IMG/VR virus record: IMGVR_UViG_3300037400_002947
Coordinates: 54,999 to 118,998 of that record
DNA from: a virus
Taxonomy: Duplodnaviria > Caudoviricetes
DNA length: 64,000 nt
Strand: one strand, 5' to 3'
Part shown: piece after piece, positions 18,568-55,274 of the stretch
Numbering within the stretch: the first letter of the stretch is position 1
How the letters are laid out: every line of letters begins with the position of its first letter
Position numbers and translations under genes: made by a program
Notes under the pieces: model-generated
What the model was told of the DNA's origin: nothing
What the model saw: only the letters and a program-made list of their open reading frames with translations
Databases searched by the model: none

Positions 18568-19054
18568 CGGTACTTCCTATACCCCCCTTGCGCTTGCCAG
18601 TCGAAGAGTCGTCCTCGACGGTCTCGTACTTCACAATGATGCCCTGGGCAATTCGATTACCAGAATCGAGATACTTCCACTCGTCGTCTCTGTTGTAGAC
18701 ACAAAGAATAATGTGTCCCTCGTTGTCAGAGTTATCATAGTAATCAGCATCGATGACTCCGATGGTGTTGGCCAGAGATAACCCGCGCTTGATTCCGATG
18801 CTTGAACGAATATCAAGAAGTAGAACGCAGTCGTTGTCGAGTCTGCACTTTACTCCGGTATAAATTTTCTTTGTGCCGCGCGGCGGAATTGACACGTCAT
18901 ATGGTAAATAAAAGTCATATCCGGCAGAGTGTGCCGTTAACCGTTTCGGCAGGATGATGCCGCTCCAGCAGTGACCGACCCAGTCTTCGTCGTTTTCGGA
19001 CGGCGCAAGGTCGGCAAGAAATTGGCTTTTTGTTACTCTTTCAAATTTATTCAT
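18560..19054 (-). CDS. dut: Trimeric dUTPase
   Basis: SAGYDF, RSS, GVIDADY, RIAQG, RKGGIGST. Confidence 0.92.
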   Translation of the reverse strand: MNKFERVTKSQFLADLAPSENDEDWVGHCWSGIILPKRLTAHSAGYDFYLPYDVSIPPRGTKKIYTGVKCRLDNDCVLLLDIRSSIGIKRGLSLANTIGVIDADYYDNSDNEGHIILCVYNRDDEWKYLDSGNRIAQGIIVKYETVEDDSSTGKRKGGIGSTDE

Positions 19055-21476
19055 TGATATCCTCCACTGTTATATTGACATCTATTCGACGCGCCAAATC
19101 ATAGACTACGTCTACGGTTACTCCATTTCCGGCTTGTTTGTAGAGCTGCGAATCGCTGTTGACCAACTCAGCCTTTACAAAATAGTCATCGCTCCAACCC
19201 TGAAGTCTGAAACACTCTTTGGGAGTTAGTTTACGAATGGCAATGTAGCAATCATACTTTGGATACCAAATTGCACTTACAGTCTCACCATTCGGAAGCT
19301 CGACATCGATTATGTTGTGCTCTCCATCCCCATCAATACCGATTGCAACACCATGCCTGTCTATGCTTGTAAGCGTAAAAGAGCACTCGCCATCCTCTTT
19401 GAATCTGCGACCATTTTGGCGCTTAACGCTTCGCTCTGGAGTCAGAACAGGAATTACGACACGGTTCATAGTCTGGTGCGTCCTCATTCCTTCTTTGGCA
19501 GGTCCACTTGAAGAAAGACATTGGGCAACGTCCGACTCATCTCCAATTATTCCGTTTGCGAATTTTACGAGGACTGCACTCGCACCGCGATCGCCGTCCA
19601 TAGTGAAATTAGTCAGACTGTTTTTCTGGTACTGGTATTTGAGAGTACGACACGTTCCGTCGGGCATTGTATTAAACCCGACAGGAAGAGCGGTGTAGTG
19701 TTCTCGTCCGCCGCCTTGACATGTCGAGAGAGCCTCTGTAATTCCGTCCTGGGCAAATATCTGCGTATTCCTACGGTACGCTTTATGGTGACCAAGTATT
19801 TTTACTGGAACACTATTCGCTTCATTTGCTGAGCAGAGAGGAAATACTTCGCGTCCGCCTCTCGATCTAAGATGTCCGACAAGATATACGCGTTCCCTGT
19901 TTTGGGGGACGAAATATTTCGAGTTGTACATCTGCCATTCGCAGTCGTACCCTAGGTCATCCATTTCAGACAGAATGGCAAGGAAGTCAAATCCGTTATT
20001 GCTGCTAAGCATGCCTTTAACGTTTTCATACACAAGCCATTCGGGGCGATCGTCTTCGCCGATTTCTTTAAGGATGCGAAAGACTTCTCGGACAAGAGAG
20101 CTTCGATTTCCTTCGAGACCTGCTCGCTTTCCGGCGACGCTAAAATCCTGGCAATTGTGCGCTGCAAGTCCGTTTGCCGTGTAGCTGTGGTCATCCTCAA
20201 CCTCCATGTTGTAAACAATTTCTTTCTCTTTTGGGTGGTAATCAATTTGTTTTAATGGCATCCAAAGATTTCCATCAACAATATATCCATTATTCTGCTT
20301 TTTAATTTCCTTATGGAATTGCAAACAGTACTGATCTTTCTGATTTACCAGTCGCCCTTCAATAATATGCTGATCTTTTGTTTTATAATGATGAATGGAA
20401 AACGGAGTGGCGTATGCCTTAAGCACGCATTGTCCCATTTGATAAATTAAGCCTTCGCTAACGCTCTGAGCCTTGAAGTATCCGTCCTTTTCGCATCCAT
20501 CGCCACTCATGTATCCATCAATAAACACGGTTAGTTTTTCCGGAGGCAAATCCATAACGAACTGAGGAATGCGTTTATTTTCTGCGCCCCTTCCACATTC
20601 CGAGCAAAGACCAAAGAGCCGTTTATCCGTTGTGGTATATTTCAAACATGTTCCCGCACTGCTGTCGACGGCAAAGCTGTACGTCTCAATGTGCTTATTG
20701 AATTCTGTACTCTTGTCAGAACCAATACAAAATGCGGTTCTTCGTGCAAGCGTATTCCTGTCTTTGCGCTCATATTCCTGGAGATAACCATCGGCAACAA
20801 ATCTTCCAAGAAACCAACACTCTTCGTCGGTAAGATTCATTGCATTACAAGAATTCTCGTTATGCGGGAACATGATATATTCGTCTCCAGAGAAATCTTC
20901 GACTGCCTTCCATTCTGGGGATGTCCATATAACGTCGTAATTTCTTGTAGCACTATTAAACTTCCTTTTCTTATAGCGCACGTAAAACCTATGGTTTCCG
21001 GTTACTTTTGTGCTCGGAGAACCTTGAACCTTAATCGTGTACAGGTTGCCTTTGTAGTTGATCATCTTCTCGGTGACCCGCTTAAACCTATTTGTATGAG
21101 TAAGAACAAAATCACCAACACAAATATCTTCAATGGGTACAAGACCGCGGTGTGTAGAAACTAAAGTGCCAGCAACAAAGCAAGGCGCTCCGAAGCACCA
21201 GCAGTCCGCTTTCGGGATAGTGTCTCCGGTAATGCTCCGGACGTCGTCGCAGTACCATTCTCCGTTTCGGTATTTCTCATTCAGTATCTCCTTGACTCTT
21301 TTATTTTTAGGAAGCGACGCAATATATGAGAGCTGATCATCAGAACATAGGTGCATCGCCGTATATGACGCCGTCGCATATTTGTCAAACTCGCAGAAGC
21401 CGACGCACTCGTGTCCGGCCATCTCCATGCCGCGCCTAAAGCCGCCAATTCCGGCAAATAGGTCTATAAATTTCAT
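19047..21476 (-). CDS. dcm: DNA (cytosine-5) methyltransferase, intein-containing, probably multispecific
   Basis: DLFAGIGG, GAP|CQDFS split by the intein, ENVKG, QNRERVY, RKLTPKEC, QAGNGV. Confidence 0.93.
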   Translation of the reverse strand: MKFIDLFAGIGGFRRGMEMAGHECVGFCEFDKYATASYTAMHLCSDDQLSYIASLPKNKRVKEILNEKYRNGEWYCDDVRSITGDTIPKADCWCFGAPCFVAGTLVSTHRGLVPIEDICVGDFVLTHTNRFKRVTEKMINYKGNLYTIKVQGSPSTKVTGNHRFYVRYKKRKFNSATRNYDVIWTSPEWKAVEDFSGDEYIMFPHNENSCNAMNLTDEECWFLGRFVADGYLQEYERKDRNTLARRTAFCIGSDKSTEFNKHIETYSFAVDSSAGTCLKYTTTDKRLFGLCSECGRGAENKRIPQFVMDLPPEKLTVFIDGYMSGDGCEKDGYFKAQSVSEGLIYQMGQCVLKAYATPFSIHHYKTKDQHIIEGRLVNQKDQYCLQFHKEIKKQNNGYIVDGNLWMPLKQIDYHPKEKEIVYNMEVEDDHSYTANGLAAHNCQDFSVAGKRAGLEGNRSSLVREVFRILKEIGEDDRPEWLVYENVKGMLSSNNGFDFLAILSEMDDLGYDCEWQMYNSKYFVPQNRERVYLVGHLRSRGGREVFPLCSANEANSVPVKILGHHKAYRRNTQIFAQDGITEALSTCQGGGREHYTALPVGFNTMPDGTCRTLKYQYQKNSLTNFTMDGDRGASAVLVKFANGIIGDESDVAQCLSSSGPAKEGMRTHQTMNRVVIPVLTPERSVKRQNGRRFKEDGECSFTLTSIDRHGVAIGIDGDGEHNIIDVELPNGETVSAIWYPKYDCYIAIRKLTPKECFRLQGWSDDYFVKAELVNSDSQLYKQAGNGVTVDVVYDLARRIDVNITVEDINE
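20154..21182 (-). mobile_element. Intein (343 aa) with LAGLIDADG homing endonuclease
   Basis: Starts CFVAGTLV, ends YTANGLAAHN followed by Cys; LAGLIDADG-like FLGRFVADG and FIDGYMSGDG. Confidence 0.92.
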
Positions 21477-33847: not shown

Positions 33848-34546
33848 ATGAAAGTATTAGTAGCATGCGAAGAATCACAACGTGTGGCAAAAGCATTTAG
33901 AGAACTTGGTCAAGAGGCGTACAGTTGCGATATTCAAGAGCCGTCTGGAGAAATGCCGGAGATACACATCATGCATGATGTACTTCCTTATATCAACGGA
34001 AACTGTGTTTTTAAGACCATGGATGGAGTTGAACATCGCATTGATAAAAAATGGGATTTAATTGTTGCGCATCCTAGCTGTCAATACCTCACGTCGTCGG
34101 GAAATCGTTGGTTCAACGTTGAGCGGTACGGAGACAAGGCAAGGGAAAGGATGAAGAGACGCGACGAAGCCGCCGAATTCTTTATGAAGATTGCCAACGC
34201 AGATTGCGACCATATTGCAATCGAGAATCCGTCCGGATTCATGTCGAGCATCTGGCGCAAACCGGATCAGACGATTCAGCCGTGGATGTTCGGCGACCCG
34301 TTCGAGAAGCGAACCTGCCTGTGGCTGAAAAATCTGCCGCAGCTTGTTCCGACCGACATTGTTGAACCGCCGCCAAGACAGGTTCTGTCGTCGGGGAAAA
34401 CGATGCCGCGATGGTATTCAAACTGTGGCGGTGACCGTCCGAAGGCAAGGAGCAAAACCTTCCCTGGAATTGCGAAGGCAATCGCAACACAGTGGACGAA
34501 TTTTTTATTAACAAAGGATGCAAATATAACAGAGGAGTATAAATAA
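33848..34546 (+). CDS. Short phage DNA cytosine methyltransferase-like protein
   Basis: MKVLVACEES, YSCDI, AHPSCQYL, IENP, KRTCLWL, RSKTFPGIA. Confidence 0.75.
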   Translation: MKVLVACEESQRVAKAFRELGQEAYSCDIQEPSGEMPEIHIMHDVLPYINGNCVFKTMDGVEHRIDKKWDLIVAHPSCQYLTSSGNRWFNVERYGDKARERMKRRDEAAEFFMKIANADCDHIAIENPSGFMSSIWRKPDQTIQPWMFGDPFEKRTCLWLKNLPQLVPTDIVEPPPRQVLSSGKTMPRWYSNCGGDRPKARSKTFPGIAKAIATQWTNFLLTKDANITEEYK

Positions 34547-35016
34547 TGCCGAGAAGATCAAGTATTGTAATTGGGGATGTATATGGAAGCCTGACGGTAG
34601 AAAAAGACCTTGGTCTTAGAAGAGGGAAGAACGGGAGAAACGCCCGTTACTTCCTCTGCCGATGCAAGTGCGGAAACTCAACGGAAGTTAGGGGAGAAAA
34701 TCTGAAGAGTGGAAACACGAAGTCATGCGGATGCAGTTACAAAGAAGACAAAATCTATGACTGCATTGCCGGAATCGACGACGCATACGACAGACTGCGG
34801 TATGCGATTGTGATTGACGCAATCGAAACGGCGAAATCTGCAACGAAAAAACTTGACGACATCAAATCGGGAAAGCGAAAGCTGAAGTACAAGGATCAGG
34901 CCGTTGAAGAATGTAAGGAAAGCATCGACGAAGCAATACGCTTTATCAAGAGCGACTGGTTCGCCGAGCTTTGCGATATAGATGCAGACACAATCATTAG
35001 AAGAATAGGAGCGTGA
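34546..35016 (+). CDS. Chimeric protein: homing-endonuclease-type Zn module plus helical phage domain
   Basis: YGSLTV...LCRCKCGN...LKSGNTKSCGC, then FIKSDWFAELCDID; no nuclease motif. Confidence 0.6.
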   Translation: MPRRSSIVIGDVYGSLTVEKDLGLRRGKNGRNARYFLCRCKCGNSTEVRGENLKSGNTKSCGCSYKEDKIYDCIAGIDDAYDRLRYAIVIDAIETAKSATKKLDDIKSGKRKLKYKDQAVEECKESIDEAIRFIKSDWFAELCDIDADTIIRRIGA

Positions 35017-35891
35017 TAAGAATGAAGGGAACTGAATTCAAGTTCAAAGGTATGACATTCATCACCGGGATCAGCGTGAAATTCGACAGAGATCTTAAAA
35101 GGGTTGTTGAACTTCTTTCAAACGGCGAGCCGAATGCAAAAGAAAGATTGGAACTTCTTTCAATCTACCATGTCGCGTTTCACGACGACGGAAAGATCGA
35201 AGGGATTTCATCCTGCGATTCTTCCTGCACGAACTGCGAATTCTGCCAGAGCATGCTGAAGGCAGCCGAGGGTGATATGTCTATCATCTGTGCGCTCTGC
35301 TACGACAAGGCGCAGGAAGCGTACAAGATCCACGGGCGTAATCGGCACAGCCTTGACATGCTGATTATGTCTTCGGTCGAGTTTACGGAAAGCGAACTCG
35401 CCCGAATTCCTCTTACGGGAATCACTCGAATTAATTCATCGGGTGACACGCCGAATCTTACATACGCAAGAAACATGATTAAGCTTGCCAAGGTAAACGG
35501 CTGGGTTCATGTAGGCTACTGGGCTAAGAACACCGGCCCTGTCGTCAGAGCTTGCGACGAACTTGGCAAGCCGTCAAACCTCGTGTTGATTCAGTCGAGC
35601 GTTCACATCGGCAAGCCTGCAAAGCTGTGCAAATACTTCGATTACACATTCACGGTGTATCCGGATGACGAGACGACGGAAGCGGCGATTCGTTCAGGCT
35701 CGGCAGAGTGTAACGGAAAGAAGTGTAGAGAGTGCGGCTTCAAGTGCTACTACGGAACGCATCTGTCGACGGACATCGCAGAGGTACTGCGCGGAGTCAA
35801 CAAGACAAAACGTAAAGCCATAATTGAAGCATGCAAATATAACAGAAAGGAGAACGCATGCAGAGATTTACATCAGCAAATACCAGCGTGA
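35013..35891 (+). CDS. GP88-like Cys-rich protein
   Basis: C..C..C...CALCY, RINSSGD, YWAKN, terminal CNGKKCRECGFKCY. Confidence 0.6.
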   Translation: MIRMKGTEFKFKGMTFITGISVKFDRDLKRVVELLSNGEPNAKERLELLSIYHVAFHDDGKIEGISSCDSSCTNCEFCQSMLKAAEGDMSIICALCYDKAQEAYKIHGRNRHSLDMLIMSSVEFTESELARIPLTGITRINSSGDTPNLTYARNMIKLAKVNGWVHVGYWAKNTGPVVRACDELGKPSNLVLIQSSVHIGKPAKLCKYFDYTFTVYPDDETTEAAIRSGSAECNGKKCRECGFKCYYGTHLSTDIAEVLRGVNKTKRKAIIEACKYNRKENACRDLHQQIPA

Positions 35892-36334
35892 ACAGCGGCA
35901 GGATGCCGAAGATTTATTCTCTGGCGTCCGACCTTATCAAAGGCAAATCAGTGATCGACTACGGTTGCGGAAAGTACTTTGACAACTACGTCGGAAATGT
36001 CGACTGCGACCTGCACGGATACGACAAGTACAACCGACCGGATGAGAACGAAATCGAGGGCGAGTACGACATCGCTCTTTGCTCGAATGTGCTGAATGTA
36101 ATCGCCGAAAGAGACGAACGCATCAAGGTTTTAAGGGAACTCAAGCGGCTTGCACCGAAGGTGTTGATAACCGTCTACGAGGGTGACCGGAGCGGAAACG
36201 GAAGAGAAACAAAGGCAGATTGCTACCAGCTTAACCGAAACGCAAGCGAATACAATCCTGAGATTTCTCAGGTGTTCGAAAAGGTCACATGGTCGCGCAA
36301 AAGATTTTGGATTTGTGAGAGGAGAACTGCTTAA
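35858..36334 (+). CDS. Small class I SAM-dependent methyltransferase
   Basis: IDYGCGK, GYDKY, CSNVLNVI. Confidence 0.8.
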   Translation: MQRFTSANTSVNSGRMPKIYSLASDLIKGKSVIDYGCGKYFDNYVGNVDCDLHGYDKYNRPDENEIEGEYDIALCSNVLNVIAERDERIKVLRELKRLAPKVLITVYEGDRSGNGRETKADCYQLNRNASEYNPEISQVFEKVTWSRKRFWICERRTA

Positions 36335-37602
36335 TGAAAGTACTTGAGTTATTCGCCGGAACAAGATCGATAGGGAAAGCGTTTGAGGCGAGAGGGCACG
36401 AAGTCTTCTCGGTCGAATGGAACAAAGACTTCGAAAACATCGACCTGTATGCAGATATTGGTCAGCTTCCAGCAAGCGAAATCATCGAGAAGTTCGGACA
36501 TCCGGACGTTATCTGGGCATCACCAGACTGCACGTCTTATTCGGTTGCGGCAATCAGTAAGCACCGCAGAAAGAATCCTGTTACCGGATCTCTCGACCCG
36601 ATCAGTGATTACGCAAAGTTCTGCGACAAGGTAAATCAGCATGTGCTCGAACTGATTCGAGAATTGAAGCCGACCTACTGGTTCATCGAGAATCCTCGTG
36701 GCGGTATGCGGAAAATGGAGTGGATGCAAGGGTTGCCGAGATATACGGTTACTTACAACAATTATGACAAACTATACGAAAGAGAGATACTAAATAATAT
36801 GCAAGAGAAGAAATGTCCACAATGTGGACTTATTAAACCGCTTGATCAGTTTTATAAGAACTCGCATAGGAAGGACGGCCTTACGACATATTGTAAAGAG
36901 TGTATAGCACACAACAGTCACGATTATTATGTCAGAAACAAAGAGGAGTGCAGAGATAGACTTAACAAATGGAGAGCGGAAAATAGAGAGCGTGTTAGAG
37001 AGCGAGATAAGAAATATAGGGAGGAAAACCCTGAAGTAGAGTTTAAGAAACAGCAAAGATACAGGGAGACCCATAAAGAACAACTGTATTTAAAAGGAAA
37101 AAGGTATCGCGAAGAAAACAAAGAATATTTTTATGACAAGATGAAAGAAAGAAAGGAACAGATAGCGAAGGTTGACGATGGCACCGTAACGAAAGAGTTT
37201 AAACAGTATCTTTTCGATGAACAGGATGGCAAGTGTGCATATTGTGGCTGTGATTTAAACGAAAGCGGAAAACACATCGACCACATCATCCCTATTTCTC
37301 GTGGAGGAAAACATACAGCAAATAATGTTCAGTGGACATGCCCTACGTGTAATCTTTCGAAAGGAGACAAGTTGGAAGAAGAGTGGCTTGTAATGGGACG
37401 TCTTAAACCTACCGACCTGTGGACCAATCATCCTGACCCGAAGTTCTTGCCGCCGAGCAAGAACGGAGATCCTGACCACGTTGCTGCGCCAAGAGGTGCG
37501 AGAACAGGAACCCAGGGGTTAAAGGGAAGTGTCGAGCGGTCGAAGATTCCGGTGCTTCTGTGTGAACACATTGTAGATATATGCGAGGAGGGATGCAAAT
37601 GA
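36334..37602 (+). CDS. DNA cytosine methyltransferase with in-frame HNH endonuclease insertion
   Basis: ELFAGT, ASPDCTSYS, IENPRG, then the insert, then KPTDLWTN...ERSKIP. Confidence 0.85.
   Translation: MKVLELFAGTRSIGKAFEARGHEVFSVEWNKDFENIDLYADIGQLPASEIIEKFGHPDVIWASPDCTSYSVAAISKHRRKNPVTGSLDPISDYAKFCDKVNQHVLELIRELKPTYWFIENPRGGMRKMEWMQGLPRYTVTYNNYDKLYEREILNNMQEKKCPQCGLIKPLDQFYKNSHRKDGLTTYCKECIAHNSHDYYVRNKEECRDRLNKWRAENRERVRERDKKYREENPEVEFKKQQRYRETHKEQLYLKGKRYREENKEYFYDKMKERKEQIAKVDDGTVTKEFKQYLFDEQDGKCAYCGCDLNESGKHIDHIIPISRGGKHTANNVQWTCPTCNLSKGDKLEEEWLVMGRLKPTDLWTNHPDPKFLPPSKNGDPDHVAAPRGARTGTQGLKGSVERSKIPVLLCEHIVDICEEGCK
36769..37395 (+). mobile_element. HNH endonuclease insert inside the methyltransferase ORF
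   Basis: Visibly A/T-richer than its flanks; Zn finger CPQC..YCKEC; CAYC...HIDHIIPISRGG.H..NN...CPTCNLSKG. Confidence 0.85.
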
Positions 37603-38753
37603 AGAACTACGTAGTAAAAGTTGTCCGTAACACAGTTGATGTAGGGTACATCACCATCAAGGCAGATAGCGCCGCAGAAGCTGTGCGGAAATATTATTAT
37701 CCAATCGCCGGAGTTGAAGACATTGTCTTTGACGATGAGATTGATTGGGAAGAAACGGAAATGGAATATACGGCAACAGCTGAGGAGGATTGATCATGGA
37801 AAACAGAATCGAGTTTATCAAGGAAATGGAAACATTCTGCCGTAAGTGTCGCGCACTCGAAGACCTTGTCATTGAGCGTGGTTATGTAGCGTATCACTTC
37901 GACCGCCCCGAGTGGGAACAGAAAGAGTTCGTTAAGACAAACGGAGAGATTCCGGTCGGAAATGACGAGTGCATCTGCATCAGATGGAAGGATCAGTCGC
38001 CGAAGTTCGGAATCATTCAGCCGATTAACGGAGACAGCTGCTACGGAATTCTGATTGATGCGATGAAACATATCACTAGGATTGGCTGATTGCCAAGAAA
38101 GGGGACAATGTTATGAAGAATTATTTGTTAGATGCGGTAAAGGAGTTCGCGGAGTACAACTTTAATCTTCCGGACGAAGAACAGGTGACGGTAGAAACAG
38201 AATTTGTCAACCTGTCAAATCCGTGGATGGATCAGTCGGGGCGCTTCGAACTGACCGACTACGAAGCAGTGAAGGAATGGGGATTACCTGCCGTTGTTGC
38301 TTTCTACGAGAAAGCGATGTCGTTAAGGCAAATGGTGAAGTGGATTGCGGAAAGGATGGAAATGAATGGCTAATTACAGAACTGTTCGTGAACTGAAACC
38401 GTATAAAGGAGCCGAGATTACTCGGCTTCACAAGGATGGAATCTTTAGTTACTTCGCATTCATGGGTGACGGAACGACTCTTCGGGCGAGGACATTAAAA
38501 GAACTGAAGGGAAAGGTAAGAGAGTATGACAAAGCGGAGCTGTGCTAACTGTGAACATCGTGCGTGGAGCAGTTGGAGTGGCATCGATTACTGTATGTGG
38601 TACGAGATGGTGACGACAGATGAGGAGTACGAAAAAGAAGCGGCGGTTTGCCAGAAGTATGAAGAAGGAACACCATACTGCTTAACGGAAGAGGCGCTGC
38701 ATGAGAATGACCGTGACGAGTGGGATTACTACTGGTCGACACGGGGTGTCTAA
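37599..38753 (+). other. Run of small hypothetical CDS (to 37793, 37790-38089, 38113-38373, 38366-38548, 38526-38753)
   Basis: Tightly packed plus-strand ORFs with RBS or overlapping stops and starts. Confidence 0.6.
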
Positions 38754-54719: not shown

Positions 54720-55274
54720 ATGATGGAGAGTGAATATAATTTGAAGCCGTGCCCATTCTGTGGTAATAAGGCCGAATTGATAGTCGCACCGGGCTATTTC
54801 AAATCTGGTCTATCGTCAAGTGGGTGGCTGGTCAAATGTACTAACGGGTGTTGCAATCAAATGCCGTATATGTCTGACCATGATGCGGTTGAAGCATGGA
54901 ACAGGCGAGAAACCGCACAGCTCGACAGGGGATACATGGAGCAGATAAAATGGGAGCGAGACTTAGCCATCCGACAGCTTGCAGACCTTGGATACGGTCT
55001 TGGAGAAAAGCCAAGGACGAACGGGGATACAATCAGCAGACAAGATGCGATTGATGTGCTTGAACGAGACGAAAGTTATAACGAAGACATTCCGCTTCGT
55101 GCGGATGGCATAAGAGATGCAATTATCACGATAAAAGGCTTACCATCATCTGCGCAGCCTAATGACTGGATGGAGAAAAATAAGTACAAGATTCTACAAG
55201 CCGGAAAAGAAGGACGAGAATATGAGTTCAGAATTGGCGGCAGATTGTTCGCCATAAGGGAAAAAGCACAATGA
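54720..55274 (+). CDS. Lar-family domain fused to additional modules
   Basis: LKPCPFCG...AVEAWNRR, then DTISRQDAID module. Confidence 0.7.
   Translation: MMESEYNLKPCPFCGNKAELIVAPGYFKSGLSSSGWLVKCTNGCCNQMPYMSDHDAVEAWNRRETAQLDRGYMEQIKWERDLAIRQLADLGYGLGEKPRTNGDTISRQDAIDVLERDESYNEDIPLRADGIRDAIITIKGLPSSAQPNDWMEKNKYKILQAGKEGREYEFRIGGRLFAIREKAQ

Follow-up and report, generated by a model that had tools for sequence, protein, structure and literature searches.

An HNH nuclease module carried in frame inside a small phage cytosine methyltransferase: a probable homing cassette that does without splicing

Introduction

The usual view is that a homing endonuclease can persist within a gene only if it hides in an intron or intein or splits the gene that it enters. 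How, then, does a complete HNH nuclease come to lie in the middle of a methyltransferase whose reading frame is intact on both sides? The question is raised by a single open reading frame (ORF) at 36334–37602 (plus strand) of a 64,000-nucleotide stretch of viral DNA, hereafter the window. The window covers positions 54,999 to 118,998 of the 118,998-bp IMG/VR virus record IMGVR_UViG_3300037400_002947 (estimated completeness 72%) and encodes a terminase, a portal protein, DnaB, a primase, and a polymerase of the PolIII-alpha type. A preliminary description of the locus had reported an HNH endonuclease inside a methyltransferase in one open frame, and this stands: the ORF encodes 422 amino acids (aa) and is stop-free across both insert junctions, and the landmarks lie where they had been placed, with RYTVTY ending at 36756, M156 at 36799, M354 at 37393, and G355 at 37396.

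Judged from its sequence, the ORF is a small C5-cytosine methyltransferase carrying an HNH nuclease insert, and we think it likely that the insert is a homing-endonuclease cassette that needs no splicing, was caught in frame, and is made as one polypeptide with its host enzyme. We favor a non-splicing homing element because the insert has no intein or intron features, shares its in-frame junctions with fused homologues, is patchily distributed, and has close free-standing relatives.

Results

A complete HNH module between two methyltransferase halves

The match of the protein to phrog_757 (small phage "DNA methyltransferase") is split, with aa 1–155 corresponding to profile positions 15–155 (E = 2.8e-27 for the N-terminal half) and aa 358–422 to positions 159–219. 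The PHROG "endonuclease VII" family phrog_1035 matches at aa 149–353 (E = 5e-41). The HNH families tested by Pfam curated cut-offs, PF01844 and PF14279, both passed, HNH_5 with 53.3 bits (cut-off 27.5; E = 2.6e-14) and HNH with 44.3 bits (cut-off 21.4; E = 2e-11), each at aa 301–350. The HNH signature of the insert is complete, with the catalytic His/Asn/Asn residues and two CxxC zinc pairs, and the ORF has the C5-methyltransferase hallmarks FAGT, PDC66, ENP119–121, R356.K358, and the motif X helix in one predicted Rossmann-type domain. The match to TIGR00675 (dcm) is weak, and the NCBIfam Cas9d and IscB models match in part. The protein itself lies below the Pfam methyltransferase threshold; among its homologues, P0005 and P0024 score above the PF00145 cut-off. 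The G+C content is 0.37–0.42 over 36700–37399 versus 0.45–0.53 in the flanks.

The preliminary description had proposed alignment to homologues as the means of fixing the boundaries, and this refined the insert to 209 residues, aa 147–355 (36772–37398). It begins with a nine-residue linker, LYEREILNN (aa 147–155; 36772..36798), followed by the HNH homing-endonuclease module proper (aa 156–355; 36799..37398), which is identified by Pfam, phrog_1035, and 54% identity to gp180 of Bacillus phage BCP8-2. The module starts with Met156 and comprises a C4 zinc ribbon (C161, C164, C187, C190; 36814–36903), a long helical hairpin (aa 196–280), an HNH core (aa 285–352; 37186–37389) with C301/C304, H314, D316–H317, N331, C336/C339, and N340, and a four-residue tail, LVMG, that ends at 37398 with no stop codon. 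On its N-terminal side, the methyltransferase part (aa 1–146; 36334..36771), supported by phrog_757, the fold match to M.HhaI, and conserved residues, contains motif I (FAGT, 36352–36363), the catalytic PDC with Cys66 (36529–36531), ENP (residues 119–121; 36688–36696), and, just before 36771, a degenerate first half of motif VIII that reads YNNYDK instead of YCQYGD. The C-terminal part (aa 356–422 and the stop; 37399..37602), supported by phrog_757 and the M.HhaI alignment, opens with the second half of motif VIII, R356-L-K358-PTD. It continues with a short Cys/His-rich region replacing the target-recognition domain, which has S375 and D381 instead of Cys, then an APRG.TGTQG stretch and a C-terminal helix equivalent to motif X. 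All these features are on the plus strand.

Uninterrupted homologues (~232 aa) read RYTVTY-CQYGD-x-RMKPTD across the site or carry a 12-residue loop there, CQYTQELPLEQR. The junctions of fused homologues read YCQY(GD/NN)-PLVQELIFK-M..KKCPxCG...EEEWLKKE-R(C/M)KPTD. On this alignment, the insertion splits motif VIII into two halves (CQYGD^RMKPTD), and by our comparison with M.HhaI (DYGIPQKRER) the first half appears to supply the YG and the second the R.K. In uninterrupted alleles of the 12-residue-loop type (e.g., P0024 and P0026), the six extra residues, ..PLEQR, share PL.Q with the fused linker ..PLVQE. Given the three shared residues, these alleles could be the type that was invaded, or they could be scars of cassette loss.

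No sign of an intein or an intron

The preliminary description had seen no intein and no intron, and profile, residue, and Rfam checks agree. Hint and Intein_splicing profiles gave nothing against the 422-aa protein at E ≤ 0.1, although the same search readily picks up the intein of P0040 and that of the window's ORF 19047–21476. The first residue of the insert is L147 (Pro in most homologues), not Cys, Ser, or Thr; its end has no His–Asn, reading ..LVMG in the window and LKKE in homologues; and the +1 residue is R356. Real inteins in sister alleles show C...HN^C. Four alleles of the interrupted methyltransferase family carry a LAGLIDADG intein of this kind at TVTY^C...HN^CQYGD, five codons upstream of the HNH site, and the site is therefore a homing hot spot.

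These data bear on the idea that splicing takes place but went unrecognized, the insert being an intein of atypical form or else an intron whose ORF joins the host frame on both sides. HNH domains do occur in frame within inteins (cited in bioRxiv 10.1101/2025.01.02.630785), and this site is used by inteins in other alleles. Against this stand the junction residues and the empty profile searches, for which we rejected an intein; moreover, the phrog_1035 span of aa 149–353 fills the insert, so that all 209 residues are taken up by the nuclease module and no room is left for a Hint domain. An intron was rejected because Rfam cmscan of 35800–38200 returned no intron family at E ≤ 1 and because the frame is kept at both junctions in ~20 diverged homologues, which argues against an intron, an element with no such need. 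We thus regard a hidden splicing element as highly improbable. As the insert is without Hint blocks and the C1/HN/C+1 residues, it should stay in the mature protein.

The state of the methyltransferase

Structure prediction, also proposed earlier as a check, is in keeping with one methyltransferase interrupted by a folded module. The AlphaFold2 (AF2) model of the 422-aa protein has a predicted local distance difference test score (pLDDT) of 83.3 and a predicted template modeling score of 0.66, and its methyltransferase, zinc-ribbon, and HNH parts are confident (pLDDT 84–92 for the zinc ribbon and HNH core). M.HhaI aligns to the model with Z 15.8 over 188 residues (chain residues 12–323), and because the alignment spans model residues 1–422, both halves are predicted to come together in a single catalytic domain that lacks a full target-recognition domain.

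The consensus YCQYGD.RMKPTD...CKNGDPCH, as given in the preliminary description, matches the uninterrupted homologues, and its Cys positions are indeed N142, S375, and D381 in the window. Most fused homologues keep all three Cys. The loss of these residues is not in general linked to the insertion: P0052 and P0064, two relatives that are uninterrupted, have S375 and D381 too, and the insertion therefore did not cause these two replacements. By contrast, C142 of the near-invariant YCQY is lost only in the window and its nearest relative, P0002, both of which also read RL rather than RM. The enzyme may thus be weakened in the window's lineage (C142N and M357L, added to the older S375 and D381) with its catalytic motifs intact.

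Could the nuclease then be no more than a tolerated insertion in a dispensable, decaying methyltransferase, with methylation lost in the lineage and the upstream frame held open only because the nuclease relies on the start signals of the host gene? The lost C142 and the RL in place of the invariant RM, both confined to the window and P0002, would fit, as would the replacement of two near-invariant Cys by S375 and D381 and the presence in the phage of other methyltransferases at 19047–21476, 33848–34546, and perhaps 35858–36334. HNH-bearing exteins also sit on longer end branches (median 0.50 versus 0.06–0.15), a difference that similarity-ranked sampling may cause and to which we give no evidential weight. 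On the other hand, the C-terminal extein stays in frame and agrees at 92% of positions between the window and P0002, motifs I, IV, and VI are preserved along with R356/K358, and the S375 and D381 changes also occur in uninterrupted, otherwise conserved relatives. We consider decay of this kind a rather poor explanation, with perhaps a slim chance of being right.

Conservation and decay among fused homologues

A protein search found ~20 full-length fused homologues (44–82% identity), all open in frame and joined to the insert at the same two points. The best matches in BFVD include no protein of the fused architecture. Across 16 of the fused proteins, the invariant positions include F7, G9, P64, C66, E119–P121, R356, K358, P359, D361, G378, H382, and P386–Q394 of the methyltransferase and, on the nuclease side, Met156, all HNH catalytic residues, and all zinc ligands. 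The comparison at the DNA level covered three fused relatives. Between the window and one of these, L208 (JAEIGA010001608.1, the contig encoding P0004), the nonsynonymous divergence (dN) is 0.16–0.25 in every segment; synonymous divergence is saturated, hence no ratio is given. The two loci have no neighboring genes in common.

Such conservation is what a domesticated bifunctional enzyme might show, in which the methyltransferase would mark self DNA and the tethered HNH would cut unmodified host or competitor DNA. Single-chain restriction-modification enzymes, and marker exclusion by the T4 seg and mob nucleases, offer analogues. The catalytic residues of both domains are invariant in the 16 fused proteins, dN is similarly low in both parts, the frame through both junctions is kept in all homologues, and the nuclease would emerge from the DNA-facing motif VIII loop; an unrelated C5 methyltransferase, P0240, also has an in-frame HNH. 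However, fused alleles are rare, making up ~25 of the 120 best listed matches in a list that is ranked by similarity to the fused query and hence biased toward it, among 1354 relatives overall. None was present among 80 listed GTDB loci, and scans of IMG/VR loci gave only the window's own record. Further against domestication, decayed in-frame copies of the fusion persist (P0016, P0023, P0019, and P0014): in P0016, the catalytic DH has become DY and a large deletion has occurred with the frame kept, and copies with a dead or deleted HNH, such as P0016 and P0023, retain an intact methyltransferase.

P0240, an ENA metagenome protein of 584 aa, is a classical C5 methyltransferase. A zinc-ribbon and HNH module, starting with its own Met, has entered it in frame after motif IX (RLQGF) and ahead of motif X (GNGW), and we take it to be an independent second case of same-frame HNH capture.

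Apparent mobility of the cassette

In a tree of the extein parts alone, HNH alleles are scattered among insert-free ones, requiring at least 7–9 gains or losses, and the approximately unbiased test rejects a single clade of HNH alleles (log-likelihood difference 171, P = 0.0017). P0002 is sister to the uninterrupted P0052 and P0004 to P0096/P0101, and P0006 falls within a long-loop clade. In the tree of HNH sequences, the 200-aa cassette forms one clade (Shimodaira–Hasegawa-like approximate likelihood ratio test support 98), nested among ~14 clusters of free-standing HNH proteins that are 54–66% identical and have their own N and C termini. This clade reaches exteins as low as 41% identical. 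A second cassette type, of 215 aa, occupies the same site in related exteins, and P0009 and P0020 are identical in their N terminus and carry different cassettes. The cassette is therefore sporadic in presence and incongruent with the host-gene phylogeny, as is expected of a homing gene.

The free-standing state is seen in the Bacillus phages BCP8-2 and BMBsp2, where a homologous HNH (54% identity; gp180 in BCP8-2) has a gene to itself. This gene is flanked on both sides by methyltransferase genes, the one immediately downstream being an uninterrupted homologue of the window's methyltransferase. In Bacillus phage Deep Blue, the two methyltransferase genes abut with no HNH between them. That the closest HNH relatives are free-standing, with one of them facultative between sister phages, that inteins use the same site, and that fused alleles are scattered among insert-free sisters all count against a domesticated enzyme, which we judge unlikely overall. 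The preliminary description had left two readings side by side, and the evidence separates them: the non-splicing homing element is favored, and the domesticated fusion is disfavored by the patchiness and the decayed HNH copies.

The junctions themselves differ between allele types. The residues next to the C-side junction are RM in 94 of 94 insert-free alleles and RC, RL, or RQ in 16 of 25 HNH alleles, and on the N side a change of GD to NN or ND occurs only in HNH alleles. These alterations fit co-conversion or target-site immunity. No flanking direct repeats were found at the insert.

Several further observations were made at related loci. We rejected a reading of BCP8-2 as a split gene of the form "methylase I, HNH, methylase II," as the annotation shows two different methyltransferases and the homologue is uninterrupted. 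Just downstream of the methyltransferases, in both BCP8-2 (L001 4146–6312) and Deep Blue (L003 3437–5648), the DNA polymerase is annotated in two pieces with an "endonuclease" gene between them, another mobile-nuclease interruption nearby. Two JGI contigs with the 215-aa-type fused gene, L209 (284–1567) and L210 (1225–2509, minus strand), differ at four positions in 1,281 nt, all in codons 135–139 (CQYGD T/N), exactly at the N junction. In a Muriventricola aceti prophage region, an HNH-like stretch (L183 5653–5868; 32% identity to aa 272–340) lies ~1 kb downstream of an uninterrupted methyltransferase homologue.

Translation signals around the nuclease

Met156 (36799) aligns with the start of free-standing HNH relatives, and the linker before it is of fixed length, PLVQELIFK of L208 being as long as its counterpart in the window. 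Twelve nucleotides before the internal ATG lies a Shine–Dalgarno (SD)-like AGAGAG in the window and GGAG in L208, and the linker is weakly similar to the 27 nt preceding the free-standing BCP8-2 HNH start. The linker (36772..36798) is thus probably what was once the 5′ leader of the nuclease cassette, now translated. The preliminary description had singled out the SD-like GAAAGAGAG ahead of 36799, which turns out to be ordinary, its strength being matched by a quarter of internal ATGs, and a promoter-like site at 36764–36791 is within chance expectation. Since no stop follows the HNH, any product started at Met156 would keep a 67-aa methyltransferase tail. A stronger SD-like run before 37393 consists of the conserved EEEW codons ahead of a Met that is not conserved. 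The ATG at 37393, once thought a meaningful start, does not hold up, as other fused alleles read LKKER there. Accordingly, the picture of three fused cistrons gives way to that of a nuclease cassette with a leader and a start codon, minus its stop, inside one gene.

Other methyltransferase and nuclease genes in the window

At 19047–21476 (minus strand), the window encodes an 808-aa classical C5-cytosine methyltransferase (PF00145, E = 4.5e-52) interrupted by a real intein, with Hint_2 at aa 97–134 and Intein_splicing at aa 138–440; in another of its methyltransferases, this phage has thus adopted the intein solution. A second small methyltransferase, uninterrupted, is encoded at 33848–34546 (plus strand; phrog_757, E = 3e-62). 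Its motif VIII is QPWMFGDPFEKRTCLW, and it is only distant kin of the interrupted enzyme (BLASTP E = 0.014). The first 70 residues of the 156-aa product of 34546–35016 (plus strand) match positions 192–256 of 617 of phrog_374, "HNH endonuclease," and this product, encoded beside the methyltransferase cluster, may be what is left of a further nuclease gene, with a DNA-binding part remaining.

Discussion

If the insert is a captured homing cassette, a plausible course of events can be outlined. A free-standing HNH gene, consisting of a short leader, its own ATG, zinc ribbon, helical hairpin, and HNH core, would have entered between the halves of motif VIII and lost its stop codon upon capture. 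Straight-through translation would then yield a methyltransferase/HNH/methyltransferase chimera, in which both methyltransferase halves may still fold as one catalytic domain and the nuclease may be looped out beside the DNA-binding face, its position relative to the active site being deduced from the sequence. The nuclease would cut insert-less alleles in co-infecting phages at or near the conserved site, and recombinational repair would copy the cassette into the cut allele. The active form could be the full chimera or a Met156-started product with the methyltransferase tail; in either form, the in-frame position would let the nuclease use the translation signals of the host gene.

Several points weigh against this account. 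The loop that the insert occupies is the catalytic one of motif VIII and not a remote one, which makes it uncertain whether the chimera is active; Met357, which does not vary among insert-free alleles, has often been substituted in fused ones, and the window has lost C142 as well. The internal SD is weak, and separate initiation at Met156 is possible at most. No near-identical empty-site genome turned up in the IMG/VR and GTDB scans, which gave almost only uninterrupted alleles. The patchiness was read from the query-biased homologue list described above and could reflect repeated loss or within-gene recombination instead of gain.

A more ambitious possibility is that the chimera is a working two-activity enzyme, its methyltransferase delivering or gating the tethered HNH in phage–phage or phage–host conflict. 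We consider this improbable. If true, it would be a natural methyltransferase-guided nuclease, and in-frame HNH capture, which the window and P0240 show independently of each other, would illustrate as it happens how nuclease domains turn into permanent inserts, as with the HNH in the RuvC of IscB and Cas9.

With the HNH in the host frame, one translation product should carry both methyltransferase and nuclease, and the same gene family shows the intein-bearing state (at the same site), the free-standing state (next door), and the empty state. The locus is thus a compact natural system for studying the insertion tolerance of a catalytic loop, the ways in which selfish nucleases gain expression, and the passage from free-standing nucleases to protein domains.

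Splicing-free insertions in phage methylases were first recognized in 2023–2025 (Gosselin et al. 2023, PMC9957025; Arsenault, Gosselin & Gogarten 2025, PMC11855218). The ShiLan domain is a ~200-aa stop-free insertion without splicing features in a mycobacteriophage methylase, with an HNH hidden in another frame and a disjunct distribution, and in the Pacc40 case other phages have a similar HNH as a free-standing gene, located upstream of a methylase that is uninterrupted (PMC9957025; PMC11855218). The window's insert is like these in its open host frame, its lack of intein and intron features, its disjunct distribution among related methylases, its zinc-finger HNH, the related free-standing HNH upstream of an uninterrupted methylase, and the intein elsewhere in the gene family. 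In those systems, however, the HNH lies in another frame with its own stop and the host-frame peptide is a featureless loop, whereas here the HNH is in the host frame, stop-free, and predicted to be a folded domain of the methyltransferase polypeptide. The setting differs as well, with a ~230-aa host enzyme lacking a full target-recognition domain, phages of gut and rumen Bacillota, and motif VIII as the site. The window's case is thus the version with the HNH in the host's own frame, housed in another methyltransferase family and placed at motif VIII.

Besides the ShiLan domain, the nearest published case is the lone LAGLIDADG domain of Taj_79-type methylases, which is outside any intein, is predicted to form its own domain, and is reported to be largely vertically inherited in one phage group (PMC9957025). 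Both cases place a homing-endonuclease domain in frame within a phage methylase, as a predicted domain of its own and outside any intein; the window differs in having an HNH instead of LAGLIDADG and in the patchiness and close free-standing relatives of its cassette. Free-standing phage HNH endonucleases (T4 mobE-type and BCP8-2 gp180) belong to the same protein family with the same domain order, at 54% identity to gp180. They too are present or absent between sister phages and adjoin the methyltransferase gene that the window's copy has entered, but they keep their own stop between genes, whereas the window's copy is stop-free inside the coding sequence of its target. Inteins, both HNH-containing ones and the LAGLIDADG ones of the same family, likewise sit in frame at a conserved catalytic motif and carry a homing nuclease, and they differ in having the Hint splicing blocks and the C1/HN/C+1 residues that the window's insert lacks. 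The resemblance to IscB and Cas9, finally, extends to the same Pfam-type HNH, a preceding helical region, and a position in a loop of another nucleic-acid enzyme; it is a resemblance of domains only, as the host here is a methyltransferase, with neither RuvC nor guide RNA.

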